Part shown: positions 4,494-22,331 of the stretch, one piece after another
Numbering within the stretch: the first letter of the stretch is position 1
Layout: each line of letters begins with the position of its first letter
IMG/VR virus record: IMGVR_UViG_3300018080_000100
Length of the DNA stretch: 64,000 bases
Reading direction: 5' to 3' (one strand)
Source of the DNA: a virus
Program-made: the position numbers and the translations under genes
The notes under the pieces: generated by a model
The model's database searches: none
What the model was told of the DNA's origin: nothing
What the model saw: the letters and a program-made list of their open reading frames with translations, nothing else

Positions 4494-5228
4494 CTAGAAC
4501 GTCCGGAGCGGAATGCCACCCATCAGGGCAGCGTGTGTTGAGAATGACGACCAATAAGTCCCTATCAACTCCTTGGTGCGTGCTAACGAGAATAGATCGA
4601 TTGCCGAGTCGGCCACAGATGTATGCCGGCCACGTCGTGCGCGCTGCGGGCGCATAGTCTGTTCGCGCCAGATAATACGATCGCCGTAGAGCCGCCGCAG
4701 CCACTTCACGCTGTCGAAGTTGTCCGAACAGAGCAGGAACTGCGCGTCGGCGTCTTCAGCGACTACGCGATCAAGCTCCTTCTTCAACAGCGGGTCGGAC
4801 TGACGACAGTTTGGTAGGTCGGTACGCCGGACATGCAGGCCAATGGCGTCGGCCGGCACGGTCTCCATGAACGCCTCCAGCGTGTCCTCGAACTCTGGCT
4901 GCAGCCGTAGCGCACGCGCCCGTGCTGTGGCAATAGTCATGAATTCGTCGTGGGGGATCTCCAGTTGCGTCCTGTTGTACCATTCGACGATGTGCGTCGA
5001 GCGTTCTCCTACGAACTCGCGGATGCGCTTGTACTTACGCCCATCACGCCGAGACGGCATGATCGCGCAGGTGTCTGGCACGAATACGTCAGCGAACGTG
5101 GAGCTACACGCCGCATGTCGGTTCCAGTGCACCAGAAACGACAAGCCGTAGTAGTCGGCAATCGCCCCAATGCCGGTCCAACCACGCAGCCTGTTGCACA
5201 GGCCGCTCTGCGTGCAGTGCTGCATGAT
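4494..5228 (-). CDS. GT11/GT23-type fucosyltransferase-like glycosyltransferase
   Basis: N-terminal SGLCNRLRGW resembles the GGLGNQMFQY motif. IGLHVRRTDL matches the HxRRxD fucosyltransferase motif I. The longer ORF version (to 5480) overlaps the neighbouring gene. Confidence 0.5.
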   Translation of the reverse strand: MMQHCTQSGLCNRLRGWTGIGAIADYYGLSFLVHWNRHAACSSTFADVFVPDTCAIMPSRRDGRKYKRIREFVGERSTHIVEWYNRTQLEIPHDEFMTIATARARALRLQPEFEDTLEAFMETVPADAIGLHVRRTDLPNCRQSDPLLKKELDRVVAEDADAQFLLCSDNFDSVKWLRRLYGDRIIWREQTMRPQRARRGRHTSVADSAIDLFSLARTKELIGTYWSSFSTHAALMGGIPLRTF

Positions 5229-5266
5229 AACCGGGAACGTGTGGCGCGTACGTCCAGGCGCCGGAA

Positions 5267-5798
5267 TTATGCCGGTCCTTCGCGGGATAGCTTTTCTGCA
5301 AAGCGCCTCAGCCTGCTTTTTCCAGTTCTGTTTACCCACGGAAATGTCCGATCTGGGACGGGCAGATTTAGAAACGCGCATAGCGGCTCCCATCCGTCGC
5401 CGCCGCATACGTCGTACACCAGCAGGTCGTCCTGCCGTTCCGCAAAGTGCTTGTAGACAGCTGCTGTGTGCTCGTCCCATTTTCGTCTATGCAGCGCAGG
5501 ACTGCCTCCAAATTGCGACATGCGGCTGATGATCCACGGGTCCATGTCTCGGACAGTCAGGATGAACTTGCTGCCCGGGTACGCCGCGTCCAGCTCGCGG
5601 AACATGTAGTTGATCGGCGAGTCACAGAAAGCATTGTACTCCTCGTCGAGAGAGTGCAAAGGCGGCTTTCCGTGTCGCTTGTTCTGCCTGGCAACCGTCT
5701 TGACCTTGCGAGCCCAGTGCAGGCAATTGAAGCCGAGGATGTTCAAGGCCTTCTGCAGCGATGCAGTGCCGGTCTTGTTCATCCCTATACCAAGTATG
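5267..5798 (-). CDS. sulfotransferase (P-loop PAPS-binding type), tandem paralog A
   Basis: GIGMNKTGTAS 5'-PSB-like P-loop. Paralogous to 5812-6357. Probable GTG start with an aagggga SD. Confidence 0.6.
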
Positions 5799-5811
5799 AG
5801 TGATTTGGCCA

Positions 5812-6357
5812 CTAGGCTAATCCCCTTCTTTTTAGCGCTCGGCGACGGCGACGGCGTAGGTACGGCGTCGTCTTGTTCTTCCACGGGAACGGCTGATCGG
5901 GCACAGGCACGCCTAAGAACTCGCACAGCGGCACCCAGCCCACGCCGTCGCATAGATGGTACACAAGGATGTCGTCTTCACGGCCCTTGAAGTAGCGTGC
6001 CACCGCCTCGCAGTGGTCGTCCCAGCAGCGAGAGTGGTACTGTCGCGTATCACCGAATTGGATCATACGGCTCTTGATCCAGGCTTCCTTGCTCCGCATC
6101 GTGAAGATGAAACGGCTACCCGGATATGTGATGTCCAATACCTCAAAATGCAGGGGTATGGGGCAGTCGCAGAACGCGCGGTACTCGTCGGTGAGCGAAT
6201 GCAGTATCGGCCGCTTGCGCAGCTGATTCTCCTCGATGACCTTGCTGACACGTACTGAGTCGTGTAGGCAAGGAAACCCAAGCACGTCCAGGGCGCGCGT
6301 CAGTGACACCGTCCCGGTCTTGTTCATCCCTATGCCAAATATGAATGGCTCATCCAT
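5812..6357 (-). CDS. sulfotransferase, tandem paralog B
   Basis: MDEPFIFGIGMNKTGTVS P-loop at the N-terminus. Aligns with the upstream paralog along its length. Confidence 0.65.
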   Translation of the reverse strand: MDEPFIFGIGMNKTGTVSLTRALDVLGFPCLHDSVRVSKVIEENQLRKRPILHSLTDEYRAFCDCPIPLHFEVLDITYPGSRFIFTMRSKEAWIKSRMIQFGDTRQYHSRCWDDHCEAVARYFKGREDDILVYHLCDGVGWVPLCEFLGVPVPDQPFPWKNKTTPYLRRRRRRALKRRGLA

Positions 6358-7750: not shown

Positions 7751-8565
7751 TTGAAGCTCCTAACGGTTGCGGCCAGTGGAAACGGGCCTCTGGCAGAGAA
7801 GTCGACTCTGCCCTTTGAGTGCCACCGTGTCCAGCGCCACGACGGCCGAACTAGTGAAGCTAGGCCGATGTGCTGGCACACCGCTGGGTGCATCCGATAG
7901 ATGTCGCACGCGCTACGGACGTGCGCGCAGAACTTGTTGTCGAAGCCCATACGCATGTTATGGCGTCGACTGGCCCAAGGGAGCACTGCTTTGATGCCTT
8001 CGGGCGTGACGTAGTAGCACTGCGCCGTGACGCCACCATGCGGCACGTACGTCATCGGGCTGCGCTTCTGCGAATTCTTCTTGTTGATCCAACATCCGGC
8101 AACAAGACCGACAGGACGTCGATTTGGTTCAGGCTCTTGCGCTGCAGTCGTCATACGCGCCATCCAGTCCGCGTTGAACACTACGTCGTCCTGCATAATT
8201 ATAATGCCGTGATCACGCCCGAAACTTTCGACCATCCGGCAGAACGCCTGACAGGATGCGTTCACCACGCCGGACGGGCCACGGCCCAGGCGGATGACCC
8301 GGACCTTGCCGTCCAAACCCGGGCTCTTGTTCCGCGAACGCACCTGATCTAGGTCCATATCGCGCCACCGCTGCGACCTCGGCCACGATGCGCCTACAAA
8401 CACCGGCTTGTCCGTGTACAGGTAATCCTTTGTGGACTGCTGGTTGCTGGCATCGTCAAAGACAACTACCTGCTGGTCAGCAGGTAGGTCAGATGCGCTA
8501 AGCGAACGCAGCGTCACATCGAGCATGGTGTGACGGTTACGTGTTACAATCCCGATCGGAATCAT
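7747..8565 (-). CDS. GT-A fold glycosyltransferase (GT2-like)
   Basis: IGIVTRNR...VVVFDDAS pattern typical of GT2 N-terminal region. ATGA overlaps on both sides. Confidence 0.5.
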   Translation of the reverse strand: MIPIGIVTRNRHTMLDVTLRSLSASDLPADQQVVVFDDASNQQSTKDYLYTDKPVFVGASWPRSQRWRDMDLDQVRSRNKSPGLDGKVRVIRLGRGPSGVVNASCQAFCRMVESFGRDHGIIIMQDDVVFNADWMARMTTAAQEPEPNRRPVGLVAGCWINKKNSQKRSPMTYVPHGGVTAQCYYVTPEGIKAVLPWASRRHNMRMGFDNKFCAHVRSACDIYRMHPAVCQHIGLASLVRPSWRWTRWHSKGRVDFSARGPFPLAATVRSFK

Positions 8566-9662
8566 GCCCAGTCCTTGATATACGGCTCGACGGCTATCAG
8601 ATCAGGCCGCTGTTCGACAGCCTGGTCGCGTGATGCCTTATCATAGAAGATTCGCAGCACGTAACCACCCCAACCAGAGCCACAGTATCGATGGCAGATC
8701 TGTCCAGGCATAGACGTCAGTGGCGCCATCCCTTCGTCCAGTTGCATCTCGTGCGTGAGCGCAACGCCCTCCGCTAGTAGATGCAAATTGTTGTCAGCTA
8801 CGCCTGCATGGGCACGCGCGCCGGCTTCAACTAGCTTGTCGTAGTCTCGTGGCGTATCCACGAGGTCAACCGTGCAATGCGGCTTGCCTGTCCATTCCAG
8901 CAGCATTCTGCCGTTCAGCATCTCCGGATTGCGTTTGAGCACCAGCACGGGATATGCACCGGAGCGCCAGCTGCACAGCCCTGTCTCTTTGATGACAGCA
9001 GGGTCTTGCCAGCCAACACCGCTACGCAGCTCCGCGGCCACCGGGTCTTTACCCTGCAACAGCGCCCAGGCCGCAGAGCCGCCCACACCGCCTCCAGGCT
9101 TGTACACAGGCTTATCCAGGCTCATCATCGGCGTGATCGCGCAGTTCACGATGCAGCCGTCGTCGCGCGCCAACCGAGGCACGTCGAGCCAGCCGCCGGC
9201 CAGGTCCACCCGCGCGGGACAGCGATCGGGCGCAGCCATTTTGATGCGCAGGTCCGTGGAGCTAACGCTGTCGGGCACCGGTGTCTTCGGAATCTGTACG
9301 TACTTGACGCCGAGCTTGGCGCACAGCTCCTTCTTCTGCGAGACGTACTTGTCATCGACCGTTGCGGCGAGGATGTCGAAGTCGCCCGAGCGCATCGTCA
9401 GCTCGAAGTTCGTCTCAGGCGCCCAGTCGCTGCCGCCGATTACTACGGAGTCGACGAAGTCTATCGAGAGTAGGATGAGCTTCTTGTGCGACGCAGGCAG
9501 ACAGGGTTCACGACCCTTAATCTGCTTTACGACGTCGTCCGTAGGCACAACGACCGTCAGATGATCGCCGAGTGCTTTGGCTTCGCGAAGAAATTGGACG
9601 TGACCGGCGTGGATAACGTCGTACGTCCCGCTGACAAGAACCTTTACTTTCCGATCTGCCAT
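8562..9662 (-). CDS. bifunctional nucleotidyltransferase (HxGH cytidylyl/adenylyltransferase-like) + GHMP sugar kinase
   Basis: N-terminal KVLVSGTYDVIHAGHVQFL (H-x-G-H). C-terminal KPGGGVGGSAA (GHMP P-loop). Start assigned to the internal MADRK. Confidence 0.6.
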   Translation of the reverse strand: MADRKVKVLVSGTYDVIHAGHVQFLREAKALGDHLTVVVPTDDVVKQIKGREPCLPASHKKLILLSIDFVDSVVIGGSDWAPETNFELTMRSGDFDILAATVDDKYVSQKKELCAKLGVKYVQIPKTPVPDSVSSTDLRIKMAAPDRCPARVDLAGGWLDVPRLARDDGCIVNCAITPMMSLDKPVYKPGGGVGGSAAWALLQGKDPVAAELRSGVGWQDPAVIKETGLCSWRSGAYPVLVLKRNPEMLNGRMLLEWTGKPHCTVDLVDTPRDYDKLVEAGARAHAGVADNNLHLLAEGVALTHEMQLDEGMAPLTSMPGQICHRYCGSGWGGYVLRIFYDKASRDQAVEQRPDLIAVEPYIKDWA

Positions 9663-10399
9663 CTGTAACTCCCGTGCTGATAGTCGAAGCTCGTGAAGCG
9701 ATGCCGCTGCGCCATTTCCGTGTAGACACGGACGAGCAACGTATGGATCGGCGCATCGCCCCAACGCTTCGTATAGATGCCACCGTGCTTCTCGATGGCT
9801 TCCAGCGCTTCTTTGCACGGGGAGGTCAACCAGAGAGACGGCTTAGCGATATGGAAATTGTTGTAGTAGATCTTCCGGTCCCACTTGTAGGTACCGAAAG
9901 CAGGATCATGCGCACGCAGCATCGCCTTCAGGCCGCGGACCGCAGTCTTGGATTCTGGACGTGTCGCGCGCCACGCGTAGACCTTGTTGCCCTCTGCCAT
10001 GACCTCGAACGGGTCGTCGTGCATCTTGGAGCGGATGTACGAGTCATCGTCGAGGCGCATGTAGTAGTCGAAGTCCTTCAACATCGGGTATAGGCCCAAC
10101 GAGAAGAACCGGCACATGTTGCGGTAGCCGATGCTGTGCGACTGTGACAGCGTCCACTCGTTGAACTTGCTTACGTCGATGTGCGGCGGCGGCGAGATGT
10201 CGACCTGCTTGAGCACTACACGCGCGCAGCGCTCTTGCATCTGCCGCAGATGCTCATCCGTGAAGTCGCCCTCGTGGCAGACGACGACTGGGTGTGGATG
10301 CGCATCCAGCAGATTCTTCTGGAGCAGCTTCAGGCTTCTGAGCAGCTTGTCCAGTCTACGAGTCTGTGCCAAGTAGATGATCACTGTATTCATGGGCAT
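9644..10399 (-). CDS. GT15-like (Kre2/Mnt1-type alpha-1,2-mannosyltransferase family) glycosyltransferase
   Basis: YRNMCRFF and YYMRLDDDSY motifs resemble GT15 signatures. SD tgaggag upstream of MPMNT. Confidence 0.45.
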   Translation of the reverse strand: MPMNTVIIYLAQTRRLDKLLRSLKLLQKNLLDAHPHPVVVCHEGDFTDEHLRQMQERCARVVLKQVDISPPPHIDVSKFNEWTLSQSHSIGYRNMCRFFSLGLYPMLKDFDYYMRLDDDSYIRSKMHDDPFEVMAEGNKVYAWRATRPESKTAVRGLKAMLRAHDPAFGTYKWDRKIYYNNFHIAKPSLWLTSPCKEALEAIEKHGGIYTKRWGDAPIHTLLVRVYTEMAQRHRFTSFDYQHGSYRWQIGK

Positions 10400-11080: not shown

Positions 11081-11947
11081 CTACTCTCCTTTGTGGTGGA
11101 AGACCTCTTCCATAGGTGCCCAGACTTCGCCTGGGGGTAATTCGCTGACGGGCTGCTGCAACGGTGTGCATAGCTTCCACCAGCGCTGTGTTTCCTCGTC
11201 CGCAGCCATCTTGGCCATGTCAGCCTCGTAGTCGTCGCCGACGTACTCGTAGTAGCTGAACAGGTAATCGTTCCCATCCGGCAGACGCGCCGCAAAGATC
11301 GAGTAGTTGCGGATGTTGCACTCCTCGATCTTACTCAGAACGGTTGCCCACACTTCGGCATGCAGCCGCCGATACTCGGCAAGCTTGCCCGGCGTGACCT
11401 GCACGACCATGCCGTAGCGGTTTGCAAGGCCCTTAGGCCAGATCGACTGTGCTAGGCTGCACCGCAGCTCGTCGACATCGAATACGACGTTGACGCCGAA
11501 CACACGCCCCTGCACCAGGAAACCCCTGCGTGTCACCCACTCAACCTCGACCACTGCACGGTTCTCTGGGATCTCTGGTACCTTTTCATCGCCGTATGCG
11601 CGTGCTATGCGCTTGAATACAGGCGACAGGATGCAGAAGCCCTTGTTAAGGTCCGACACGCTTATGGTGCGCCCTTCTGGCTCAGCTGCGAATACCAGCA
11701 GGTCGGGGTGAGCATCCAGTACGATGCAGCGCTTCTCCGTGTCAACCTGGCGGTCGAGTTCGATCACGATATCGGGGTCGTCGCCAAAGTCCCACGGCAA
11801 GAACATCCGTACGCGGCTTTCCTTGTCGGTGAACGCCATGGGTAGCCCGGTGACACCCTCCGCCTCGATTGCCGCGGCCACGTTGGGCCGGCGCGGGCGC
11901 AGCCAGTTCATAAACTCCGGCGTGATCTTGTATACATCGGTCGGCAT
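11081..11947 (-). CDS. fusion protein with C-terminal L-rhamnose mutarotase (RhaM/YiiL, Dabb) domain
   Basis: C-terminus EYRRLHAEVW..NYSIF..DGNDYLFSYYEY..QRWWKLCTP..EVF matches rhamnose mutarotase conserved residues. N-terminal ~190 aa unknown. Confidence 0.5.
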   Translation of the reverse strand: MPTDVYKITPEFMNWLRPRRPNVAAAIEAEGVTGLPMAFTDKESRVRMFLPWDFGDDPDIVIELDRQVDTEKRCIVLDAHPDLLVFAAEPEGRTISVSDLNKGFCILSPVFKRIARAYGDEKVPEIPENRAVVEVEWVTRRGFLVQGRVFGVNVVFDVDELRCSLAQSIWPKGLANRYGMVVQVTPGKLAEYRRLHAEVWATVLSKIEECNIRNYSIFAARLPDGNDYLFSYYEYVGDDYEADMAKMAADEETQRWWKLCTPLQQPVSELPPGEVWAPMEEVFHHKGE

Positions 11948-11983
11948 CTTTGTACCTCGCAACTACAAACTAAAGTGCGACTT

Positions 11984-12409
11984 TCACTCGTCGCCCAGTA
12001 GCTCCTCCCATTTGTCAATACGACGTACGTCACTGTCGTCGTGGTATGTGCTGGACTCGTAGGCCCACGTGTCGTGTTCGGCGCTCAGCCGATGCCAGTC
12101 GCCAGGATGCAGCATGATCGACCAGCCGGGCTGCAGCCTAGCGATCTGCAATGCCACCATCGAGTGGATGCCGGTGCGCATCAGCTGTTCTGGGTCGCCC
12201 TGCAAATACTCTACGACCAAACAGCCCGATTCGCAAGTAATTACCTCGGCCTTGATCGGATGCTTGTGAATGCTCGACTTCTTGCCCGCCTTGACGAACA
12301 GCGTCTTCTGGCACAGGTTGTGATTGACGTCATTGAGATGCCACGACTCGTAGCCCCAATCCTTCGGCACAAACTTCGCGGTTTGCACGGGAATGACTTC
12401 AGCTGCCAT
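11984..12409 (-). CDS. cupin-domain protein (sugar isomerase/epimerase-like?)
   Basis: KDWGYESW...H.H...E...PGDWH cupin two-motif pattern. Confidence 0.5.
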   Translation of the reverse strand: MAAEVIPVQTAKFVPKDWGYESWHLNDVNHNLCQKTLFVKAGKKSSIHKHPIKAEVITCESGCLVVEYLQGDPEQLMRTGIHSMVALQIARLQPGWSIMLHPGDWHRLSAEHDTWAYESSTYHDDSDVRRIDKWEELLGDE

Positions 12410-12725
12410 CTTCCTCTTCCTCCTCCTCGGGGTCGCCGTATATCTGTTTAACGTCGGTCTTGAACTCAGTCTTACAGTGTGCGCAGGTCACAATGCAAGG
12501 GGCCATGACCGGAAAACCCTCGTCGGGCTCGATATCGAGCGCGTGGTACACGAGGTTTTCCTCAATGAGCGAGCGGTAAGGCGGCATGATCGCACAGACG
12601 AAGTTCTGCCGTCCACACTCGTCACAATCCCACGCAAACGCGGGGTGTAGTTCGACTTCGATCACACCAGTAGCCCTGCACAGGTCAATATGATTAAGAG
12701 CGCCGCGCCGATGCCTGCTATCCAC
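12399..12725 (-). CDS. zinc-ribbon hypothetical protein
   Basis: CDECG...CAHCK pair of CxxC motifs; acidic C-terminal tail. Confidence 0.4.
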   Translation of the reverse strand: MDSRHRRGALNHIDLCRATGVIEVELHPAFAWDCDECGRQNFVCAIMPPYRSLIEENLVYHALDIEPDEGFPVMAPCIVTCAHCKTEFKTDVKQIYGDPEEEEEEDGS

Positions 12726-12765
12726 ATCGCAATGGCGAATTCGCTTGGAAACAGATCGTTCATGG

Positions 12766-13416
12766 TTACTTAGGCGGCTTGGCGGCGCGTTCGACAGCCA
12801 AGCAGACCTCTCCGTCTTTCTCGATGAGTGTGTTCATGTCGTCGAACGGGATATACGCTCGGCCGTTTTTGCCCCAGTTTTGGCCCCATGAGTTCTTGAT
12901 CCGGAACAGCCCGCGCTCCTTGGATACGCCAGTGACGAGGTAGGCATGCCCGCCGTAGTTTGGCCCTGTGGCCGACAGGACAGCGTCGGCGCCTGGCCGA
13001 TCCATGCCCTTGTACCAGTTGGTGCCCACAACGACCGGTCCGCGCTCCAGCACGGCGTCGAGCAGCGTGTCCACGTCCCAGGCCCACTCGTATCGGTCGA
13101 TCAGGCCGAGCATCTTGAGCACCTTGGCGCCTGCACGCACCGACGTGCCGTCGTAGTTGGTGCCCTTCCACTCGTCGTACTTCTTGCAGATCGTGTATAG
13201 GCCGTCGGGGTTGAGCCAGTGGCGGATCGGCGCGCTGGCCAGCCAGTGCGACCATGCAAAGCCCACACAATGCGGGGTGGCCTTCTGGTCCTGCCAGCAG
13301 CGATGATCCTGCCAGAAGCGATAGACGCGTTCGCTCGCTGTGCGTGGGATGCGGAATCGTCTGTCGCGGGCGTCGGGCTTGTAGCGCCGACCGTAGTTAC
13401 GCTTGGGCATTGTCAT
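12766..13416 (-). CDS. papain-like (C1) cysteine peptidase
   Basis: CVGFAW (catalytic Cys), GGHAYLVTG (His), KNSWGQNWGKNG (Asn/Trp) in C1-family order. Confidence 0.55.
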   Translation of the reverse strand: MTMPKRNYGRRYKPDARDRRFRIPRTASERVYRFWQDHRCWQDQKATPHCVGFAWSHWLASAPIRHWLNPDGLYTICKKYDEWKGTNYDGTSVRAGAKVLKMLGLIDRYEWAWDVDTLLDAVLERGPVVVGTNWYKGMDRPGADAVLSATGPNYGGHAYLVTGVSKERGLFRIKNSWGQNWGKNGRAYIPFDDMNTLIEKDGEVCLAVERAAKPPK

Positions 13417-14032
13417 GCTCCTTGTCTGGGTTTTGCCAACTTAGATCGTACCCGAAACGGCGATCGGCGTGAAACCAGGGCCTTACTGTGTTCCACAGCT
13501 CTGGCGTATACACCTGCCGAAAAGGTGGGTGCGCTGTATTGTAGTTGTCTTCCTGTATCGGCACCTGTGCGGCACCCACGTGCGCCATTACCTCATCGAA
13601 TCCGCGCTGCATGTCCTCGAACGGTACGACGAATGACACGATCGTACGTCCGTACCCGGCGCCTGCCGATGCGCTCGTCCAATGCGCGTTGGGCAACCTG
13701 CCATAAGCATGCGGCTGCAAGCCACGCACCCATTGTTCGAAGGATTTTCTACGAACACGTGAAGCCTGCATACGCTTTAAGAACCAGTAGAGCGACACCA
13801 AACGCGCCATAGGGTGGCGCACGGTCGTAAACCACGTATAGTCACGACACTGCGCATACTGCGGCATCTTCTTGAACTCTGCCGGCGATGTGTGTTGATC
13901 AGCCTGACGCGGCCACCGCGGCATAAACCAACGCTCGGCGCCCAACTCGTCCTGCAGCGTCCGCCCTATCGACGAACTGGCGCAGCGCGGATTACAGAAG
14001 AACAACAGCTTGTAGTCGTGCGCAACTATCAC
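13397..14032 (-). CDS. sulfotransferase-family protein (Sulfotransfer_2-like)
   Basis: N-terminal LLFFCNPRCASSS resembles the xxH/RxPKxxGTS sulfotransferase motif. Basic W-rich body. Confidence 0.45.
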   Translation of the reverse strand: MIVAHDYKLLFFCNPRCASSSIGRTLQDELGAERWFMPRWPRQADQHTSPAEFKKMPQYAQCRDYTWFTTVRHPMARLVSLYWFLKRMQASRVRRKSFEQWVRGLQPHAYGRLPNAHWTSASAGAGYGRTIVSFVVPFEDMQRGFDEVMAHVGAAQVPIQEDNYNTAHPPFRQVYTPELWNTVRPWFHADRRFGYDLSWQNPDKEHDNAQA

Positions 14033-14430
14033 TGGACTAACACCTTGGAGATGTCGAGCAGTGCGTGACAGACGCGCAGGGCGTACTGGTTGGTATTGAT
14101 CAGATCAGGCTCGAGGGCGTGGTCCTCTTCCAGCTCATCGTCGTCCTTCATGGTCTTGACGATCTCGTCCAGGTGCGCAATGCAGTCCTTGGCCGCACAG
14201 CTGCGGATGAACTCGCCATAGCGGGCAGTCAGCTCAGGTACGGTGGCGCCAGCGTCGCGCTCGGTGCGCAGCTTCGTGAGAAACTCCTCCAGCTCCTCGG
14301 CTGCTTCGCGCAACTCAACGGCCAGCTGGGACAACTGGTGCATGTATCGGACGCTACGTGACATGAAGTTCCTCCACGAGGTCTGCAACCTCTTCGCCAA
14401 CTGGATAACCGAACTCCTCGAACCATGCAA
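14029..14430 (-). CDS. hypothetical helical protein
   Basis: 133-aa ORF, 4-bp overlap with the downstream gene. Confidence 0.4.
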   Translation of the reverse strand: MHGSRSSVIQLAKRLQTSWRNFMSRSVRYMHQLSQLAVELREAAEELEEFLTKLRTERDAGATVPELTARYGEFIRSCAAKDCIAHLDEIVKTMKDDDELEEDHALEPDLINTNQYALRVCHALLDISKVLVQ

Positions 14431-15064
14431 GGTACTTTTCTTCGATATGCTGGATATCGAAGTACGGCAGCCGCTGGTGGTAGCCGCCGATACCGACGTG
14501 CTGCCGGTGGCGCTGTTTGCCGTACAGGAAGCCCTGTTCCGGCTCGTATTCAGTGTTCAGCTCAGGTAGAATCTCGAGCTTGATTGCTATGTCTTCCAGC
14601 TGCCGATAGTCGAAGCTGTGGTCTGGGAACAGGTGCCTGGCCAGCATATCCAGCGTACCCACCTTGTTGACCATCATGCTCTCGAATCGGAGCCCCTTGG
14701 TCGCGCACGCCGTCCATTCGAACGCAGGCTCGACAAGCAGCGCCTCCATACCGACGAATACGCCATCGCAGAGTCCACGGCGCTTGTACGACTCGACTTC
14801 CAAGAGCTGGGCAGCTACAGCGCTGCAGAACGCGTCTCGCAGGTCGCGGACGATGGTGATGACTTTGTCGGCCGGGCGCCAGTCCACTGAGATGTCGTGG
14901 GTCTTGATAACCTCGATGAACCCGGCCGGCGGCGGCTCATACGACTGAATATCGGTGGCATAGACGATGCCTGGGAACAGCTTCTCCGCCAGCATGCGCA
15001 CGGCGTTGAACGTCCACGTGGAGCCCGAACGGGCCATTGCCCCGACAACGATCCTGGTCATCAT
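14354..15064 (-). CDS. sulfotransferase (P-loop type)
   Basis: GAMARSGSTW (5'-PSB P-loop) and TIVRDLRD (3'-PB RDxRD-like). The palindromic motif abuts the start. Confidence 0.65.
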   Translation of the reverse strand: MMTRIVVGAMARSGSTWTFNAVRMLAEKLFPGIVYATDIQSYEPPPAGFIEVIKTHDISVDWRPADKVITIVRDLRDAFCSAVAAQLLEVESYKRRGLCDGVFVGMEALLVEPAFEWTACATKGLRFESMMVNKVGTLDMLARHLFPDHSFDYRQLEDIAIKLEILPELNTEYEPEQGFLYGKQRHRQHVGIGGYHQRLPYFDIQHIEEKYLAWFEEFGYPVGEEVADLVEELHVT

Positions 15065-15086
15065 TTTGTTCCTGTGATCAAAATCA
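15065..15086 (-). promoter_or_regulatory. conserved inverted-repeat motif abutting a sulfotransferase start codon
   Basis: ttttgttcctgtgatcaaaatc. Confidence 0.4.
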
Positions 15087-15737
15087 GCGTTCCATCATCT
15101 TCACCCGGTGCTGCGGGCCAGCAAGCGCCATCAGGTCGTCCTCCTGCTCTGGCGTAAGCCATTGCGGGATACCGACTAACGACGCGGCCACCAAGCTCTG
15201 CGCAGCGTCCTCGACGATCTGGCAGCGGAAGAACGCCTGTCGCATAGTCGTACCCAAGGCACAGAAGCCATGGTTGACCATGAAGATCGACTCGGCTTCC
15301 TTGGCAGCCTCCGCCATCCGGTCGGCTAGTTCCTGTGTGGTAGGCGTGACATACGGCACCGTGGCACGCCGGCCCAGATCATTGACTACCTCAGCGAACA
15401 TCGCCCGTTGCGCCATATCTAGGCCTGAGCTGATCACGCCACACAGCCAAGGCGAATGTACGTGGAACACGGCGTGGATGTCTGGACGCGCTCGATAGAT
15501 GGCCAGATGCATCTGGGTCTCAGACGTCGGCTTGTAGGTGCGCGTACGCGGCTTGCCGCTGTCGATCGCCACGGGGCACAGCTGACGTATGTGCAACTCA
15601 CCCAGGGACAACCCGCTCGGCGACAGCCAGGCGGTGTCGCCGTCGCGCGCACTGATGTTGCCGCCAGAGCCAACAACCAAGTGTGCGTCGTAGAGCTTCT
15701 TGCCGTATCGGACTAGGGCGTGTGTGATAGCACTCAT
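15084..15737 (-). CDS. class II aldolase/adducin family (L-fuculose-/rhamnulose-1-phosphate aldolase or ribulose-5-P 4-epimerase-like)
   Basis: VVGSGGNISAR motif and H..H.H metal ligands. Start at MSAITHAL with a TAATG overlap to the upstream gene. Confidence 0.6.
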   Translation of the reverse strand: MSAITHALVRYGKKLYDAHLVVGSGGNISARDGDTAWLSPSGLSLGELHIRQLCPVAIDSGKPRTRTYKPTSETQMHLAIYRARPDIHAVFHVHSPWLCGVISSGLDMAQRAMFAEVVNDLGRRATVPYVTPTTQELADRMAEAAKEAESIFMVNHGFCALGTTMRQAFFRCQIVEDAAQSLVAASLVGIPQWLTPEQEDDLMALAGPQHRVKMMER

Positions 15738-16498
15738 TAGCAATAGTTCTCGTACTGCAGGCCACCAGGAATTTCCACGATGGCCGACTGTTCGATCACG
15801 TGGCACCAGGAGAAGAGTTCGATCATGTAGGCTTCCTTCTTCACGTGGCAGTGCAGGCCGTCCACAGCGAGTTCCAGCGACACAGGAACGTCCTTGTGCA
15901 TCATGCGGATCTCGTGGACCGGTCCCATCGTAGAGCAGGCCAGCGCAATCATTACGCGCCGCTCGTGTGTGTTATCGAAGGACGCCTCGTCCCAGTCCCA
16001 CGTCCATTTGGGCGACACGATGCGCCGCGGCATGTGCGGTAGGCCGCCAGCAGGGAACGGTCGCGGCTCGCACCAGCGAGGTAGCGCATCCACCATGGCG
16101 TAGCGCATGCCAACGGACAGCAGGGAGCTGAAATGCTCGTCATTCGCTGCCTGGTCTACCAACCAGCCCAGCGGATGCTTAGGCTCAGGCAGCCCGTCGA
16201 GCTTCTCTCCGCGGGACATGTGCATGCTAAGCGGTATCGTAGAGAACGGTACTGCCACAGCGCGCGTCCCCGTGGCTATGCCGTGCTTCTTCAGCACCTT
16301 GGCGTACTCGAGGATCTGCGTGGCGACCATGTCCGGTACGTCCGCAGTCTTGTCCGACTTGAGCTGGGACGCCATGCGCTCCTGTTCGGTCTTCATCAGT
16401 GCCTGCTCGGTTTCCATGTCACAGCCGTTGGCTGCCATCAGCGTGGACTGAGAGATCAGGCCGGCGCCTGCCAGCCCTAGAAAGCTTCTGCGTTTCAT
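15737..16498 (-). CDS. secreted protein with twin-arginine (Tat)-like signal peptide
   Basis: MKRRSFLGLAGAGLISQSTLMAANG (RRxFLG + hydrophobic + AxA). Confidence 0.5.
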   Translation of the reverse strand: MKRRSFLGLAGAGLISQSTLMAANGCDMETEQALMKTEQERMASQLKSDKTADVPDMVATQILEYAKVLKKHGIATGTRAVAVPFSTIPLSMHMSRGEKLDGLPEPKHPLGWLVDQAANDEHFSSLLSVGMRYAMVDALPRWCEPRPFPAGGLPHMPRRIVSPKWTWDWDEASFDNTHERRVMIALACSTMGPVHEIRMMHKDVPVSLELAVDGLHCHVKKEAYMIELFSWCHVIEQSAIVEIPGGLQYENYC

Positions 16499-16649: not shown

Positions 16650-19271
16650 CTATTGAAGCATCTGTAGCATTTGTTGACGGCGCGGCTCGCCTGGCCCGAC
16701 AAACGGTATGGTAAAGCCCTTCTCCGCCTTGATGCCTTCGATGGCCTTCTGGCGCATCTCTGGCGGGAGCTGCGCGATGAGCTGCGCCATCTGCTGGTCT
16801 GGGATCTTCTTGTAAGCCCACGCCTTGATCAGGTCTTTGACGTCAGCTTGGGAGTCCAAGATGCCTTTCTTGCCGCCCTTATCGCCGTACTTGTTCACCC
16901 AGCCGAACTGTTGTCGTAGATCGGCCATGGCCTGTTCGGGCGTCTGCGGCTCAGGCGGTCCCTGGCGGACGCCAGCCGGTACGTTGGCCTCGTTACGCAT
17001 TCCAGGAGGCCCTTGTAACGCCGGATCGGCCGCTGGTATCTCATTAGGCGGCTCTTCGGGCGGAAGCTCCGGAACTGGCGCTGCGGCTGCTGGCGGCGGC
17101 ACAGGGCCAGCAGGCTCTACGCCAGGAATCTCAGGCGGCCCTTCGGGCATTGTTGGCCCAGCCGGGGGCTGTTCAGCGCCCTCAGGCGCTGCCTGGTCGC
17201 CTCCACCGCCGAACTGGTTCATCACCCAGTCGCCACCTCCGAAGGCCCATCCGAGCCCACCGAGACCGAGCGCGCCGCCGAGCATGGTCATCATGCCGTC
17301 GCCGCCCATCAGGCCGTTGATGAGCCCCATGACAGCGCCACCGACGCCGACGATGAGACCGAGCTTCTCGTGCCAATCCGAGTTCTTCCACCAATCGATG
17401 GCCTGCTCGATGTAGCCCGGATCCTGCTTTAGCTGCTCAGGATCAGCGCCCATCTGGGCCGCGTCCTGCTCGGCTTTGTACTCGAACGCCTTGCTGAGGT
17501 CGTCGGCATCGTATTCACCGTCAGCCCACTGGCGGGCGATCTTGCCCATGGCCTGCTCAACAGGGATGCCCTGCTCATAGGCCAGCTTGTGCGCCTTCTC
17601 GATACTGCGGTTCGCAATGACCTGCTGCACGGCACGTGGCACCTGCTCCTGTGGCACCTGCCCGGAGTTGATGGCGGCCGTCAGCTGCTCGATCTGTTGC
17701 GGCTGCATCGGATTGCTCATGGCGCGCTGGAAGGCGTCGTCGCCTACAGGGCCCTCGTAGATCATCTGGGCGACCGCTGGGTCCAACGGCTGCTGTGGTG
17801 CTGCAGGAGGCTGTCCAGGGGCCTCAGCGGCCGGAGGCGGCTGTTGTGGTGCTGCGGCCGGAGGCGGCTGTTGTGGTGCTGCGCCCGGTTCTGGTTGCGC
17901 TGGTGGCGCTCCAGTAGCCGCTCCTGGAGCCTGAACGGTCCCAGAGGCCGATGGTGTTGCAGGAGCGCCCTGAGCGCCCTGAGGGCCGCCCATCTCTGGG
18001 ATCGGTCCTGTGGGCGGCAGCTCTGTAGCAGCGCTTGGCTGCGTAGCGGCAGGCGGGTTGGCCTGTGCTGCTGCCGCGCCAGCCTGTTGGCCAGCGGCAA
18101 ACGATTCGGTCGGTGCGCTGGGCGCTGCTGGCGTTAGCGGCGCTGGTTTCGGTCTGTTGCCCTGCATGAGGCTTTCCATGTGCTTCACGAGTATGGATTG
18201 CTGTGTTGGATATGCTTCGACCGCTGGTGGCCCTTGTTCGCCGAAAGACTGTTCCCACTTCTCGTACTCGGCTTGCGCTGCGTCGAAGAAGCCTTTCTTC
18301 TCTTCATCGGTGAGTCTTGCGAGCACCTGTTGCTCGGGACTGCCCTCTGGCCACATGCCAGCGCCGACCGAACCCATCTCGCCGAAGATCAGGCCCAGGA
18401 AGCCCTTGCCTTTGCCGACGACATACGGCAACGCCGTCGACGCCGTATCGAACATGATACGCCCGGTGTCGGTGAATTTGTCGCCGGGGCCCTGCTTAGC
18501 GGCTGAGCTTTCAGTGTCGTGCCACCAGTCGTCGAATCCGCGGCTGGTCCGTGGACTGAACAACTGGTGCATACCGCGCTCATACGCGTTCTGGTACGGC
18601 ACACGCGCCGAGCGCATTGCTTCCACGCCGTGATCAGTGATGCCTAGAGCATCAGTGCCGTAGGCACCGAGCTGTCCGATACCACCAATCACGTCGCCCC
18701 AGAAGCCGCCTGCGCCGCCCAGTGCGCCTTTCGTTGCAGCTACAACTGGCGCGATGAAGCCTGGGTTACGAATTTGACGCCCGCCGGGGGCGTTGAAACC
18801 CTGCTCAGCACTGATCTGGTCCTGTGTGGCCCAGCCTGGCCCTTCATCGATTCCAGGCGTATTTTGCCACTGCCATTCGTTCTTCCGGCTCGGTGTGCCT
18901 ACCTTGTGTCCCGGATCCAATCCCGGCTTGGTAGCCGGATCGATACCACGAGAGATGAGGTCGGCACGCATGCGGGCCTGCTCTGCTTCGATCGACGGAC
19001 GCGGCCCCGGTGCAGGGCCAGGACCGTCCCAGGCTAGCTCCGGCGGCTTGAATGCGGGCTGTTTCGCCCCACGTGCGTACATGGCCGCGCCCATACGGCC
19101 ACCGATCGGGCCGGCGAGCGGGAGAGCCTGCTTCTCGAGCGCCGCACCCTCAGTGAATAAAGATGCAGGGCTGCCTGCTGACCGCTGGCGTGGTTGGTCA
19201 GCAGACAGGCCCTGCGGAGCGGATTCGATGGTCAAGGCAAAGGCTGCCTTGATTAGCTGTTCTGTGTTCAT
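16650..19271 (-). CDS. large low-complexity P/A/Q-rich protein with Gly-rich membrane-like segment (putative internal virion/ejection protein)
   Basis: 873 aa. Long PAPQQPPPAA tracts and GGALGLGGLGWAFGGG glycine-zipper; no enzymatic motifs seen. Confidence 0.5.
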   Translation of the reverse strand: MNTEQLIKAAFALTIESAPQGLSADQPRQRSAGSPASLFTEGAALEKQALPLAGPIGGRMGAAMYARGAKQPAFKPPELAWDGPGPAPGPRPSIEAEQARMRADLISRGIDPATKPGLDPGHKVGTPSRKNEWQWQNTPGIDEGPGWATQDQISAEQGFNAPGGRQIRNPGFIAPVVAATKGALGGAGGFWGDVIGGIGQLGAYGTDALGITDHGVEAMRSARVPYQNAYERGMHQLFSPRTSRGFDDWWHDTESSAAKQGPGDKFTDTGRIMFDTASTALPYVVGKGKGFLGLIFGEMGSVGAGMWPEGSPEQQVLARLTDEEKKGFFDAAQAEYEKWEQSFGEQGPPAVEAYPTQQSILVKHMESLMQGNRPKPAPLTPAAPSAPTESFAAGQQAGAAAAQANPPAATQPSAATELPPTGPIPEMGGPQGAQGAPATPSASGTVQAPGAATGAPPAQPEPGAAPQQPPPAAAPQQPPPAAEAPGQPPAAPQQPLDPAVAQMIYEGPVGDDAFQRAMSNPMQPQQIEQLTAAINSGQVPQEQVPRAVQQVIANRSIEKAHKLAYEQGIPVEQAMGKIARQWADGEYDADDLSKAFEYKAEQDAAQMGADPEQLKQDPGYIEQAIDWWKNSDWHEKLGLIVGVGGAVMGLINGLMGGDGMMTMLGGALGLGGLGWAFGGGDWVMNQFGGGGDQAAPEGAEQPPAGPTMPEGPPEIPGVEPAGPVPPPAAAAPVPELPPEEPPNEIPAADPALQGPPGMRNEANVPAGVRQGPPEPQTPEQAMADLRQQFGWVNKYGDKGGKKGILDSQADVKDLIKAWAYKKIPDQQMAQLIAQLPPEMRQKAIEGIKAEKGFTIPFVGPGEPRRQQMLQMLQ

Positions 19272-19279
19272 GGCTATCC

Positions 19280-20182
19280 CTAAAGCTGAATGCCGGGCCA
19301 GCGTGCAATCTTGTCTCGGCTCGGGCTGACCTTCTTGTCGCTGAGCCCGTCAGTCGCTTCGGTGGTCGGACATGCCGGCTTGAACCCGCCAGCGGCCGGA
19401 CCGTATGTGCTGTTCTGCAACACCTGCGTCACGCTGGGCACGAGCATGGCCAGCTTGTCGTAGGCATCCTTTTCCTGCGCAGCCTCCTGCTTCTTCTTTT
19501 CCTTCTCTGCCCGCTGGTTCTCGTACTGCTGTTCGTAGTTGTTGCCGGGCAGCCACTTGTCGAGCAACATCGAGGTCGGTAGGCCGGCAGCCAATCCGCC
19601 GATGCCCATACCAGCTAGACTGCCCAGCGGATGTCCAGTCATTCCACCGGCTGCGCTACCAACACCCATACCAGCAAGCAGGGGAACCACTGAGCCCCAG
19701 GTGTGCAGACTGTTACGCTCTGTGTCTGGCATTTCACCGCTTTCCCAGCTAGGCGCCTTCTGCCGCCCGCCAAGCGCATAACCGGCAACGCCGCCTGCGC
19801 CCATACCGCCGAGCGCGCCGAGGCCAGCACCAGCGCCGATGTCTTCACCCATGAGATGTGCGATAAGCGCACCTAGGCCAGCGCCACCGGCGCCGCCACC
19901 GAGCATACCAAGACCGGTCTTAGCGCCACGCCGTGCACCTCTCGCATAGCCCTCAGTGCGGTTGCCGGACGGCGCAAACATCGCACCAAGTCCGCCGCCG
20001 ATGAGGCCGGTGTCCGAAATGCTCTGCTTCTCCAGTGCGAGCTTCTCCAGCCGCTCAGCACACGCCTCGGCCATCTTACGACGACCCCTGCGCTTCTTGA
20101 GCGCTTTGGCGACGATCTTGTCCTGCTCGTCGTCCTCTTCGATCGGCTTACGGACGGCCATTATGTCTTGTGGGTCAGGCAT
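19280..20182 (-). CDS. glycine-zipper membrane protein
   Basis: Repeated GxxxG/GAGLGALGGMGAGG segments; basic N-terminus. Confidence 0.5.
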   Translation of the reverse strand: MPDPQDIMAVRKPIEEDDEQDKIVAKALKKRRGRRKMAEACAERLEKLALEKQSISDTGLIGGGLGAMFAPSGNRTEGYARGARRGAKTGLGMLGGGAGGAGLGALIAHLMGEDIGAGAGLGALGGMGAGGVAGYALGGRQKAPSWESGEMPDTERNSLHTWGSVVPLLAGMGVGSAAGGMTGHPLGSLAGMGIGGLAAGLPTSMLLDKWLPGNNYEQQYENQRAEKEKKKQEAAQEKDAYDKLAMLVPSVTQVLQNSTYGPAAGGFKPACPTTEATDGLSDKKVSPSRDKIARWPGIQL

Positions 20183-20195
20183 CGTTCTCTCCTTG

Positions 20196-21647
20196 TTATG
20201 CGTATGACGACAAGCGGCCGGCCTGGTCGAGCTGGTCTCGTAGGCCGCTGTGCAGGATATCCGCGCTCTGGTCGCTCATGGCGGTGTTGAACGCGTTGGG
20301 GTCATGCCCGGTCTCGAACTGGTCGCGCCGGGCCAGGTAGTTCTGCTGCGGCAAGCTGACGTCAGCACCGCCACGCAAGCCAGCACGCGCCTTGGAAGCG
20401 ATCATGTCGCCCCGGCGCTCTAGGCCGCTGTAGTAATCCATCATCTTCTGGGCGTTGGCCTTCTGGCCCTCGCCGATCACGCTGCCACGGCTGGACAGTC
20501 CACCAACGTCGCCCTGTCGGAGCGAATCGTAGTATTCCATCTGTTCGCGGAATCGGCTGTCGGCCCACGGTGACTTCTGTTCCGGTACCGCACCACCGCC
20601 ACCGGTGGCCTCGAAGCGCGCTGTGGCGTCAGGGAGATCCATGCTATCGGGCGGAGGGCTTTCCATCGTGCCCGACGCCATCGCATCACCAGGCGTACCA
20701 GGCTCAGCAGGCGCGTTCATGCCATCCATCCTGGCAATCTCAGCCTCGAAGCCTGGGCCACGAGGATTGGGCGGCTCGTTCATGCCATCCATCCTGGCGA
20801 TCTCTGCCTCGAAGCCTGGGCCACGAGGGTTCGGTCCAGGCCCGCTCTCTGGCATGCGCGCGTTCATGTCGGCCACGGCCGCCTCAAAACCAGGGCCACG
20901 AGGGTTGCCAGGCTCAGGCGGCGCATTCATGCCGTCCATACGTGCAATCTCTGCTTCGAAGCCTGGACCACGTGGATTGGGCACAGGACCACTCTCAGGC
21001 ATCCTGGCGTTCATGTCGGCCACAGCAGCATCGAAACCAGGGCCACGAGGGCTGTCCGGCTGTTGCCAGTTGATCTCCGGAAGCGGAGGCCCAGGGTACT
21101 TGTCCTTGGCGAGGTCAGGCGCACCAGGCTTAGGCGCATTGCCTGTAGGCTCACCGACAGTATCCCAGTTGACGTCCGGGAGCGGACCGCCAGGCGGCTG
21201 GTCGTAGGCTGCATCAACAGGCCCGCCCATGGCCGGGCTGATCGGCTGCTGCGGTGCTTGCGGAGTTGCAGGCTGCTGTGCTGCTACAGGCTTAGGCGCA
21301 GGACGCCGGCCGCTCGAATAGAACGAGTAATCGGCTGTTCTGTTGGGGTTGGCCGGGCCGCTGAGTGTTGCGCCCGGTGCGCCACCAGCGCCGACACCGC
21401 TGGCAGCAAGCGCCTTGGGTATGTCCTGAAAGCCCTTGTTGGCCATCATGGGCAGCTTAGCGGGCGGACGGGTAGGCGGCTTCAGCCCACCGACGCCACC
21501 TGCCATTGGCTTGGGGCCTACTGGATTGAGCGCCTTGAGACCGGCGCCTCCGACGCCACCAGCGCCACCAAGAGTCTTAGGTGGCTCAATAGGGGCAGCT
21601 TCCTTGAACAGGCCCACGCCGGCCTGCAGAAGTTCTTGAGAGTTCAT
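20196..21647 (-). CDS. tandem-repeat protein (PRGPGFEAxxAxMxxxMPESGP units)
   Basis: Five to six ~24-aa repeats (NPRGPGFEAEIARMDGMNAPPEPG), visible as DNA tandem repeats around 20650-21060. Confidence 0.55.
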   Translation of the reverse strand: MNSQELLQAGVGLFKEAAPIEPPKTLGGAGGVGGAGLKALNPVGPKPMAGGVGGLKPPTRPPAKLPMMANKGFQDIPKALAASGVGAGGAPGATLSGPANPNRTADYSFYSSGRRPAPKPVAAQQPATPQAPQQPISPAMGGPVDAAYDQPPGGPLPDVNWDTVGEPTGNAPKPGAPDLAKDKYPGPPLPEINWQQPDSPRGPGFDAAVADMNARMPESGPVPNPRGPGFEAEIARMDGMNAPPEPGNPRGPGFEAAVADMNARMPESGPGPNPRGPGFEAEIARMDGMNEPPNPRGPGFEAEIARMDGMNAPAEPGTPGDAMASGTMESPPPDSMDLPDATARFEATGGGGAVPEQKSPWADSRFREQMEYYDSLRQGDVGGLSSRGSVIGEGQKANAQKMMDYYSGLERRGDMIASKARAGLRGGADVSLPQQNYLARRDQFETGHDPNAFNTAMSDQSADILHSGLRDQLDQAGRLSSYA

Positions 21648-21692: not shown

Positions 21693-22331
21693 TTACCCCT
21701 CTGGGACATAGAGACCTTCGAACAACTTCCAGTCGATCTGGTCGGTGATCTGGCGGATGTGTTCGGGCTTCAGTAGCTCCAAATACTGCTTTTCCGTGTA
21801 GTATTGGCGCTTGAACTTGTACTGAGGCATCCCTCCAGGGGTACTGCCTGGCCGTACAATCGTCTCCGGCAGCGCGTCCCAGCGCTTCTTCGGCGGGCCC
21901 AGCAGCTCGGTCATCGGCGCGTAGAGCGCGTCCAGCGACTCCAGCACGTCCTCGTACCGAACGATGGCCTTGTCGTACTTCGTCTTGAACCAGGCCCGGT
22001 AGAAGTTGTTGTACTGCCCGATGCGGTAGCCCAACTTCGCTGGCCCGTACGAAAACGGAATCTTGGTGTCGGGGATCTTGGTGCCCTGATGGCCTGCCTG
22101 CACTGCCCATGCATGCCAACTGACGATCCACGCATAGGGATCCTTCAAATTGATCAGCAGAACAGTATTGAGCGGCCAATCTCTCGAGTCCTGTACTGTG
22201 CGGTGCTTGGTAGTACGCCCGCGCTTACCGCGGCGACCGACCAGGTGATTGTATCCCCAACCATCTTCCACCATCTTGCCACACATGGTCGTGCCAGAGC
22301 GTGGCAATCCTCGCTGTTGTACCTTACGCAT
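21693..22331 (-). CDS. sulfotransferase-like P-loop protein
   Basis: GLPRSGTTM P-loop near the N-terminus and later aromatic/basic motifs. Embedded in the virion-like module. Confidence 0.45.
   Translation of the reverse strand: MRKVQQRGLPRSGTTMCGKMVEDGWGYNHLVGRRGKRGRTTKHRTVQDSRDWPLNTVLLINLKDPYAWIVSWHAWAVQAGHQGTKIPDTKIPFSYGPAKLGYRIGQYNNFYRAWFKTKYDKAIVRYEDVLESLDALYAPMTELLGPPKKRWDALPETIVRPGSTPGGMPQYKFKRQYYTEKQYLELLKPEHIRQITDQIDWKLFEGLYVPEG

Follow-up and report, generated by a model that had tools for sequence, protein, structure and literature searches.

A lyxose-isomerase-type cupin, a FucM-like mutarotase fusion and a FucA-type aldolase in a glycan-building and sulfating island of a probable phage genome

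Three described systems bear on the genes discussed here. The L-fucose mutarotase FucM of Acidovorax avenae belongs to the RhaM superfamily and to the L-fucose pathway that runs without phosphorylation (PMC11199699), the microcompartment in which Planctomycetes and Verrucomicrobia degrade fucose and rhamnose has a class II aldolase as its signature enzyme (PMC4207490), and cyanophages carry a 'heptose-related lipopolysaccharide (LPS)' gene set, T4-GC304-308 (PMC7378029). We found relatives of these enzymes and genes on a single stretch of 64,000 nucleotides of viral DNA (IMG/VR record IMGVR_UViG_3300018080_000100; this whole stretch is termed the window below). On its minus strand lie genes for a 288-residue fusion protein with a C-terminal RhaM/FucM-type mutarotase domain (11081-11947), a minimal metal cupin of the D-lyxose/D-mannose isomerase type (141 residues; 11984-12409) and a class II zinc aldolase of the FucA type (217 residues; 15084-15737). 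An earlier sequence-only reading had picked out these open reading frames (ORFs) by motifs that are indeed present (EYRRLH, NYSIF, DGN, QRWWK and EVF in the fusion, and GSGGNISAR in the aldolase). Its superfamily assignments were correct, and the products of the three ORFs are the same in gene calls made independently on at least 10 public metagenomic contigs. That reading united them under a single deoxyhexose theme. As a leading but still tentative explanation, we instead favor that they are three separately acquired sugar enzymes in a sugar-activation toolkit, that is, a nucleotide-sugar supply line, within a glycan and sulfation island.

The cupin matched the Lyx_isomer profile of Pfam (PF07385; e-value 2.4e-8, 33.9 bits against a cut-off of 20.8), with a weak match to Cupin_2 besides, and phrog_7851 (e-value 9e-18). 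The Lyx_isomer match spans only positions 83-193 of the 222 in the profile, and the score of 20.5 bits against the D-lyxose isomerase equivalog NF051472 lies under its cut-off of 350. A word-indexed search recovered one relative only, a scan of IMG/VR none, and a sequence search of solved structures nothing meaningful; a full HMMER search of representatives drew in 1,561 proteins at e-values of 1e-3 or below, mostly 110-170 residues long. In an alignment of 83 family members H48, H50, K53, E55 and H106 are invariant and constitute the HxHxxKxE...H pattern of lyxose isomerases. Foldseek searches with an AlphaFold2 (AF2) model built from the family alignment (predicted local distance difference test, pLDDT, 93.5) recovered lyxose isomerases as the best matches (3kmh, 3mpb, 2y0o and 7nzo). 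With these D-lyxose/D-mannose isomerases (E. coli O157 Z5688, 3kmh/3mpb; B. subtilis YdaE, 2y0o; Thermofilum, 7nzo) the window protein shares the best fold and Pfam match and the metal and lysine motif, but it has 141 residues against their ~170-230 and is only 20-23% identical to them, and the genomic partners of its family are kinases and nucleotidyltransferases, not pentose catabolism genes. Going by the conserved motif and the modeled fold, it is a probable metal-dependent aldose-ketose isomerase. The cupin fold proposed by the sequence-only reading was thus retained, whereas its comparison with RmlC gave way to a lyxose-isomerase-like assignment. An RmlC-type epimerase was rejected as a candidate, given that there was no dTDP-4-dehydrorhamnose 3,5-epimerase match in Pfam or NCBIfam, that the top 50 fold matches include no RmlC and that a full metal site is present. 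We also noted that on a related contig (L022) a second cupin paralog (11302-11739), 29% identical to the window protein, adjoins the conserved one and has lost the HxH...E metal ligands.

The associations of this cupin family are with sugar activation. One family member is a fusion of PfkB, CTP_transf_like and cupin domains (P0332) and another a fusion of CTP_transf_like and cupin domains (P0234); two more start or end with a DxDGT motif that appeared HAD-like to the eye, and Pfam gave only cupin domains for them. A tblastn search recovered 36 cyanophage records with a 34-38% identical cupin (T4-GC307; e-values down to 1e-11), which is annotated there as a 'cysteine dioxygenase' or as a 'putative nucleotidyltransferase'. 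Four cyanophage loci were inspected (S-SM2, S-CAM1, S-SSM7 and Bellamy), and in each of them the neighbors of the cupin include an enzyme of the CTP_transf_like or NTP_transferase type, a kinase of the PfkB or GHMP type, SDR epimerases and small HAD-like proteins. Among the genes of these modules that were scanned, none was recognized as an SIS-type isomerase, making the cupin the natural candidate for the isomerase step. The T4-GC306 genes labeled 'phosphoheptose isomerase' (S-SM2, L104, 6615-6926 and 8256-8585; Bellamy, L106, 7603-7911; S-SSM7, L107, 5643-5978) encode proteins of about 105 residues with a DxDxT start, one of which gave a weak match to the HAD_PNKP profile; they look like small HAD phosphatases rather than SIS isomerases. 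Given the fusions, the cyanophage neighborhoods and its nucleotidyltransferase-kinase partner in the window, described below, the cupin family belongs with heptose/mannose-type kinase-nucleotidyltransferase modules and is tied to sugar activation, not to deoxy-sugar handling.

The window shares with the T4-GC304-308 module this homologous cupin and a homologous cytidylyltransferase-like enzyme (34-37% identity). The cyanophage module also holds glycosyltransferases and a kinase, and two of the phages have a class II aldolase in it. Unlike it, the window has its kinase-like domain fused to the transferase, and a mutarotase and many sulfotransferases are added. Homologs of the HAD-like, PfkB and SDR proteins of the cyanophage module are missing from the window, which fits a route through free sugars, to which a mutarotase is of use. 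In S-SM2 and Bellamy the class II aldolases are part of the glycan modules, suggesting that phages can use such enzymes to provide glycan precursors; as they are only 24-25% identical to the window aldolase, they were acquired independently of it.

The partner of the cupin in the window is likely to be a 366-residue protein encoded 2.3 kb downstream on the same strand (8562..9662, minus), which combines a cytidylyltransferase-like nucleotidyltransferase with a GHMP-kinase-like domain. Its transferase domain matched Pfam CTP_transf_like (e-value 2.4e-10) and NCBIfam rfaE_dom_II (2e-16), and its solved relatives are cytidylyltransferases. The other half gave a weak NCBIfam fucokinase-fragment match at a GGW motif (e-value 1.3e-3). 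Of the kinase-nucleotidyltransferase fusion named by the sequence-only reading, the nucleotidyltransferase has Pfam and NCBIfam matches, and the kinase is a motif-level assignment only.

The mutarotase domain (residues 176-288; 11081..11422, minus) matched Pfam rhaM (PF05336) over its C-terminal ~108 residues with an e-value of 2.5e-28 (98.8 bits against a cut-off of 23.4; positions 1-104 of the 105 in the profile). Among solved structures it recovered the Acidovorax avenae L-fucose mutarotase FucM (7byu) with an e-value of 2.5e-33, as against 6e-6 for E. coli YiiL, and other rhamnose mutarotases matched more weakly; RhaU and FA22100 are likewise much more distant than FucM. While the sequence-only reading had rightly placed it in the RhaM superfamily, it matched it to L-rhamnose mutarotase, and the equivalog for that enzyme, TIGR02625, is not reached (44.8 bits against a cut-off of 99.6). 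An AF2 model of the domain was confident (pLDDT ~90), and Foldseek aligned it with 7byu (template modeling score, TM, 0.88 at 52% identity), then with 1x8d (TM 0.78) and then with other Dabb proteins, establishing it as a Dabb domain. Y192 and H196 of the fusion align with the catalytic Tyr18 and His22 of YiiL, and Y192 is invariant across 26 homologs. FucM (7byu/7byw) and the window domain thus have in common the 52% identity over the whole domain, the Dabb fold and the Tyr/His pair. However, FucM is a free-standing protein of ~110 residues from a catabolic cluster, whereas the window domain is the C-terminus of a longer protein from a probable phage, with no gene for a fucose dehydrogenase or lactonase close by. 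Judged by sequence, the domain is FucM-like and its link to 6-deoxyhexoses is real; mutarotase activity is predicted. A tblastn search of 50,697 phage records with the RhaM domain gave no match.

The N-terminal 175 residues of the fusion (11423..11947, minus) form an orphan domain, which found no match in Pfam (even at e-values up to 1), PHROG, NCBIfam or the Protein Data Bank (PDB), and no relatives in the IMG/VR scan. Their sole detected homolog is in an 80% identical ortholog (P0002) on a 4.4-kb contig. Comparison with this ortholog gave a ratio of nonsynonymous to synonymous substitution rates (dN/dS) of 0.13, similar to that of the neighboring genes, and the region is therefore a real domain constrained by purifying selection. 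The AF2 model of this half was too poor for use. A degenerate second RhaM copy was considered for it, and the hhalign comparison, though in register, was not significant (e-value 0.15, probability 0.4%). As regards fusions elsewhere, many bacterial proteins of 220-285 residues (among P0003-P0038), the other long matches of the fusion included, are tandem RhaM-RhaM repeats behind a lipoprotein-type signal peptide, and RhaM domains also occur joined to URO-D-like, PHP-hydrolase, SDR or enolase-superfamily domains. The mutarotase fusion lies directly downstream of the cupin gene in the same direction, with 36 nucleotides between them.

The aldolase (15084..15737, minus) matched Pfam Aldolase_II with an e-value of 3.8e-40, and its best solved relatives are fuculose-phosphate aldolases (6btd, 2e-23). 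Its E73, H92, H94 and H156 correspond to Glu73 and His92/94/155 of E. coli FucA and are invariant in an alignment with FucA and the homologs from the Planctomycetes-Verrucomicrobia-Chlamydiae (PVC) bacteria, and its phosphate-binding residues likewise align with those of FucA. At FucA Tyr113', contributed by the neighboring subunit, the window protein has a loop reading MFAE, with Ala opposite and Phe one residue before, although the alignment is uncertain there. The assignment as a fuculose/rhamnulose-1-phosphate-type aldolase by the sequence-only reading is therefore upheld, as the zinc and acid-base set is complete. Under the NCBIfam models it scored 105 bits with FucA_Meth (cut-off 250), 60 with fucA (400), 40 with RhaD (170) and 40-45 with the AraD models (257-389), and it lies under every equivalog cut-off (including TIGR01086 and NF040649); the FucA-type models are best, with epimerases and MtnB lower. 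Like E. coli FucA in length and fold family, it is only 23% identical to it and has no fucI, fucK, fucO or fucU nearby in the window. A reading as 3-oxo-tetronate decarboxylase was ruled out on scores and context. The start of the aldolase gene overlaps by 1 nucleotide the stop of the upstream gene (15737-16498, minus), which encodes a 253-residue protein with a twin-arginine-type signal (MKRRSFLGLAGAG...); a 30%-identical homolog of this protein is present on a related contig that is without the aldolase (L015).

Hundreds of close homologs of the aldolase were detected, the nearest being chromosomal genes of Planctomycetota (59-70% identical), followed by those of Verrucomicrobiota, Kiritimatiellia and Lentisphaerota. 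All 80 genome loci with an ortholog are from PVC bacteria and cellular in context, so that the aldolase looks like a host-derived ketose-1-phosphate aldolase. Of these loci, 28 have an FGGY kinase gene in the vicinity, 17 a RhaA gene and about 24 Zn-dehydrogenase genes, and the first two counts render a link of the aldolase to 6-deoxyhexoses plausible. No shell-protein Pfam family was listed among the neighbors in the annotated aldolase loci. One could suppose that the aldolase and mutarotase are catabolic auxiliary genes, unconnected to the surrounding glycan genes, which fuel infection by enhancing fucose or rhamnose degradation in the host, with sulfated polysaccharides as the source of these sugars. 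The close identity to chromosomal PVC genes, the FGGY and RhaA neighbors, the place of a class II aldolase in the PVC microcompartment (PMC4207490) and the absence of both genes from two related contigs speak for this proposal. Yet both genes belong to a biosynthetic island, neither the isomerase nor the kinase step was recognized in the scanned phage ORFs, and cyanophages too carry such aldolases within glycan modules. Moreover, the closest planctomycete homologs lie beside two Zn-dehydrogenase genes, joined in two of those loci by RpiB and an RPE-like protein, and not beside RhaA or FGGY genes. We therefore regard the catabolic explanation as unlikely.

Class II aldolase-fold and cupin proteins also occur together in methionine salvage. 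The pair in the window might on these grounds be seen as an MtnB-type dehydratase, or a DrdA-type aldolase of 5-deoxyribose disposal, with an acireductone dioxygenase cupin, and the aldolase does score 69 bits with the MtnB model. However, this is far under the cut-off of 137 and also under the FucA-type models, the cupin matches lyxose isomerases and gave no acireductone dioxygenase match, and the cellular orthologs of the aldolase lie outside mtn clusters, making such a pair extremely unlikely.

Comparison with two more distantly related contigs indicates which of these genes belong together. L015 retains the cupin, the small ORF upstream of it, the papain-like peptidase, Cpn10, the cold-shock protein and the nucleotidyltransferase-kinase fusion, and is without the aldolase, the mutarotase fusion and the GT15-like glycosyltransferase described below. 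L022 has two cupins, one of them lacking metal ligands, and is without the aldolase, mutarotase, GT15, nucleotidyltransferase-kinase and GT25 genes. As the cupin is kept in both without the aldolase and mutarotase, it is a core gene that is independent of those two. These data bear on the proposal of a single salvage or modification pathway for L-fucose or L-rhamnose, in which all three enzymes would take part and which would end in a fucosyl- or rhamnosyltransferase. It draws on the FucM-like mutarotase domain, the aldolase orthologs beside RhaA and FGGY kinase genes, the weak fucokinase-type GGW motif of the kinase-like domain and an HVRRTD motif in the ORF at 4494-5480. But the last of these, read by eye, is the sole basis for the supposed GT11-like fucosyltransferase, which found no Pfam or PDB support and is not upheld. 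Furthermore, the cupin belongs to a heptose/mannose-type family and is conserved where the aldolase and mutarotase are missing, and unrelated genes are interspersed among the three. No ketose kinase, RhaA or FucI was recognized in the scanned parts of the window; RhaA-, FucI-, FucK-/FGGY- and FucO-type genes were sought in Pfam scans of selected ORFs, with no dedicated search of the whole window. We consider this unified pathway improbable: the deoxyhexose theme of the sequence-only reading holds for the mutarotase and is plausible for the aldolase, and it fails for the cupin.

Returning to the nucleotide-sugar supply line, we infer the substrates, the direction of the aldolase and the coupling between the parts from the observed families, folds, catalytic residues, synteny and fusions. 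The cupin would convert a ketose to an aldose, and the FucM-type domain would accelerate the exchange between anomers of a free L-fucose-like aldose, thereby supplying an anomer-specific kinase in a salvage reaction. The GHMP-like domain would then phosphorylate the aldose at C1, and the transferase domain would convert the resulting aldose-1-phosphate to a nucleoside diphosphate sugar (NDP-sugar). This could be used by the neighboring glycosyltransferases, with the glycan subsequently sulfated by the sulfotransferases. The FucA-type aldolase, presumably captured from a planctomycete, would interconvert a ketose-1-phosphate with dihydroxyacetone phosphate (DHAP) and an aldehyde, and might either supply the ketose precursor or drain 6-deoxy-sugar phosphate into glycolysis. 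The aldolase and mutarotase would thus be two host-derived add-ons to a supply line of the phage.

A more elaborate version of this scheme would have the aldolase run in the synthetic direction and so complete a 'reverse-catabolic' route, by which an activated sugar would be made independently of any nucleotide-sugar pathway of the host. DHAP and an aldehyde would be condensed to a ketose-1-phosphate, which a phosphatase, for example the His_Phos_1 protein encoded at 6-689 or a host enzyme, would dephosphorylate before the cupin, the mutarotase fusion, C1 phosphorylation by the GHMP-like domain and formation of the NDP-sugar. We hold this route to be decidedly improbable. If it were true, a corollary would be that the T4-GC307 cupins are the missing isomerase of phage heptose/mannose-type pathways, replacing the SIS-fold GmhA.

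Several observations weigh against the supply line as a whole or against its parts. Enzymes of the FucM type and those of the lyxose-isomerase type are known to act on sugars of differing configuration, so it is not evident that they would share one substrate. Between the aldolase and the cupin are 2.7 kb with unrelated genes, and the co-variation of the aldolase, mutarotase and GT15 genes is drawn from only three related lineages. In the fold search generic cupins score almost equal to lyxose isomerases, and the window cupin is about 40-90 residues shorter than the characterized lyxose isomerases. The kinase-like half of the fusion had no Pfam match even at e-values up to 1, and its three colinear local matches to motifs I-III of a Pfam-confirmed phage GHMP kinase are each sub-significant (e-values 0.1-0.3). 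The catabolic-looking RhaA/FGGY clusters are the context of the more distant PVC orthologs of the aldolase. Finally, no terminase, capsid or portal gene was recognized in the window (PHROG scans of ten large ORFs), and a scan of the window for tRNAs found none.

The glycan-building and sulfating island spans ~16 kb, at about 3.8-16.5 kb of the window. Besides the nucleotidyltransferase/kinase-like fusion, mutarotase fusion, cupin and aldolase genes, it contains at least four glycosyltransferase-like genes, of which the GT15 is strongly and a GT25 and two GT2-like genes are more weakly supported by Pfam, one GT2-like gene being below the gathering score. The GT15-like gene (9644..10393, minus; Glyco_transf_15, e-value 3.2e-23), of a mannosyltransferase family, is restricted to the lineage that also carries the mutarotase fusion. 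At least three island sulfotransferases have Pfam support, and further ORFs have a sulfotransferase-like P-loop detected by eye. The mutarotase fusion, cupin and aldolase are separated by five unrelated genes, namely sulfotransferases, a papain-like peptidase and small ORFs. Of these, a sulfotransferase (13397..14032, minus; Sulfotransfer_2, e-value 3.7e-10) and the papain-like C1 peptidase (12766..13416, minus; Peptidase_C1, 1.6e-5; phrog_16701, 3.9e-52) lie between the aldolase and the cupin. The peptidase displays the motifs TPHCVGF, GGHAY and NSWG, and is the best-conserved gene of the region, with 63-84% identity in L015 (5160-5906), L016 (435-1079) and L022 (10004-10759).

Sulfotransferase-like genes are unusually numerous in the window (5267-6357, 13397-14032, 14354-15064, 21693-22331 and about 61.5-62.2 kb, the last corresponding to L021 1742-2461). 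Those with Pfam support comprise two tandem Sulfotransfer_4, one Sulfotransfer_2 and one Sulfotransfer_1, and two more ORFs have an RSGST/RSGTT P-loop read by eye. Neither the window nor the 10 kb past its start showed a gene for synthesis of 3'-phosphoadenosine 5'-phosphosulfate (PAPS). At the island edge (6-1450, minus) a histidine-phosphatase superfamily protein (e-value 8e-49) and a weakly matching orotidine monophosphate (OMP)-decarboxylase/HUMPS-like protein (2e-4) are encoded, and beyond them, outside the window, a thymidylate kinase. On the other side, three large Pro/Ala/Gly-rich proteins of 873, 300 and 483 residues (16650-21647, minus; G+C raised to 0.63-0.64) have no family matches and weak homologs in L015 and L022; that of 483 residues contains repeated NPRGPGFEAEIARMDGMN-like units. 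Further along are two adjoining paralogous genes (23037-25367, minus) for proteins of 387 and 388 residues with similar N-termini, Ser-rich linkers and no family match. A 258-residue protein (37465-38241, minus) gave weak, sub-threshold matches to DUF4394 and, at its C-terminus, to PEP-CTERM; if real, this tag would point to an exosortase-bearing host.

The window has a G+C content of 59%, and its minus strand carries nearly all the substantial ORFs, separated by very short gaps; counts of promoters and terminators were not above chance. The majority of ORFs have no family assignment, and those assigned include Cpn10, a cold-shock protein, ThyX, peptide deformylase, thymidylate kinase, an HD protein and several PHROG families. 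Public metagenomic contigs with these genes reach 226 kb (ENA, JGI and Logan assemblies), and a DNA comparison of the region against the 50,697 phage records found nothing. The source genome is large and probably that of a phage, a label derived from gene content and architecture, as hallmark genes were not recognized in the window. The most likely host is a planctomycete or another PVC bacterium.

Each of the enzyme families, phage glycan islands and the cyanophage 'LPS/heptose' genes were known previously. The mutarotase fusion is new, as is any mutarotase domain in a probable phage, and relative to the collection of 50,697 records this is the first of the RhaM/FucM type. Likewise new are a planctomycete-derived FucA-type aldolase within a sulfation island and the case made here for the phage cupins as sugar isomerases, which offers a testable function for a large and mis-annotated family. 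The island as such is a sulfating, multi-glycosyltransferase system carried by what is probably a phage of PVC bacteria; very few phages are known for these hosts. If its parts cooperate, the phage could make its own activated sugar to remodel the host surface or its own virion, which would matter for superinfection exclusion and for the flow of carbon through communities degrading sulfated polysaccharides.

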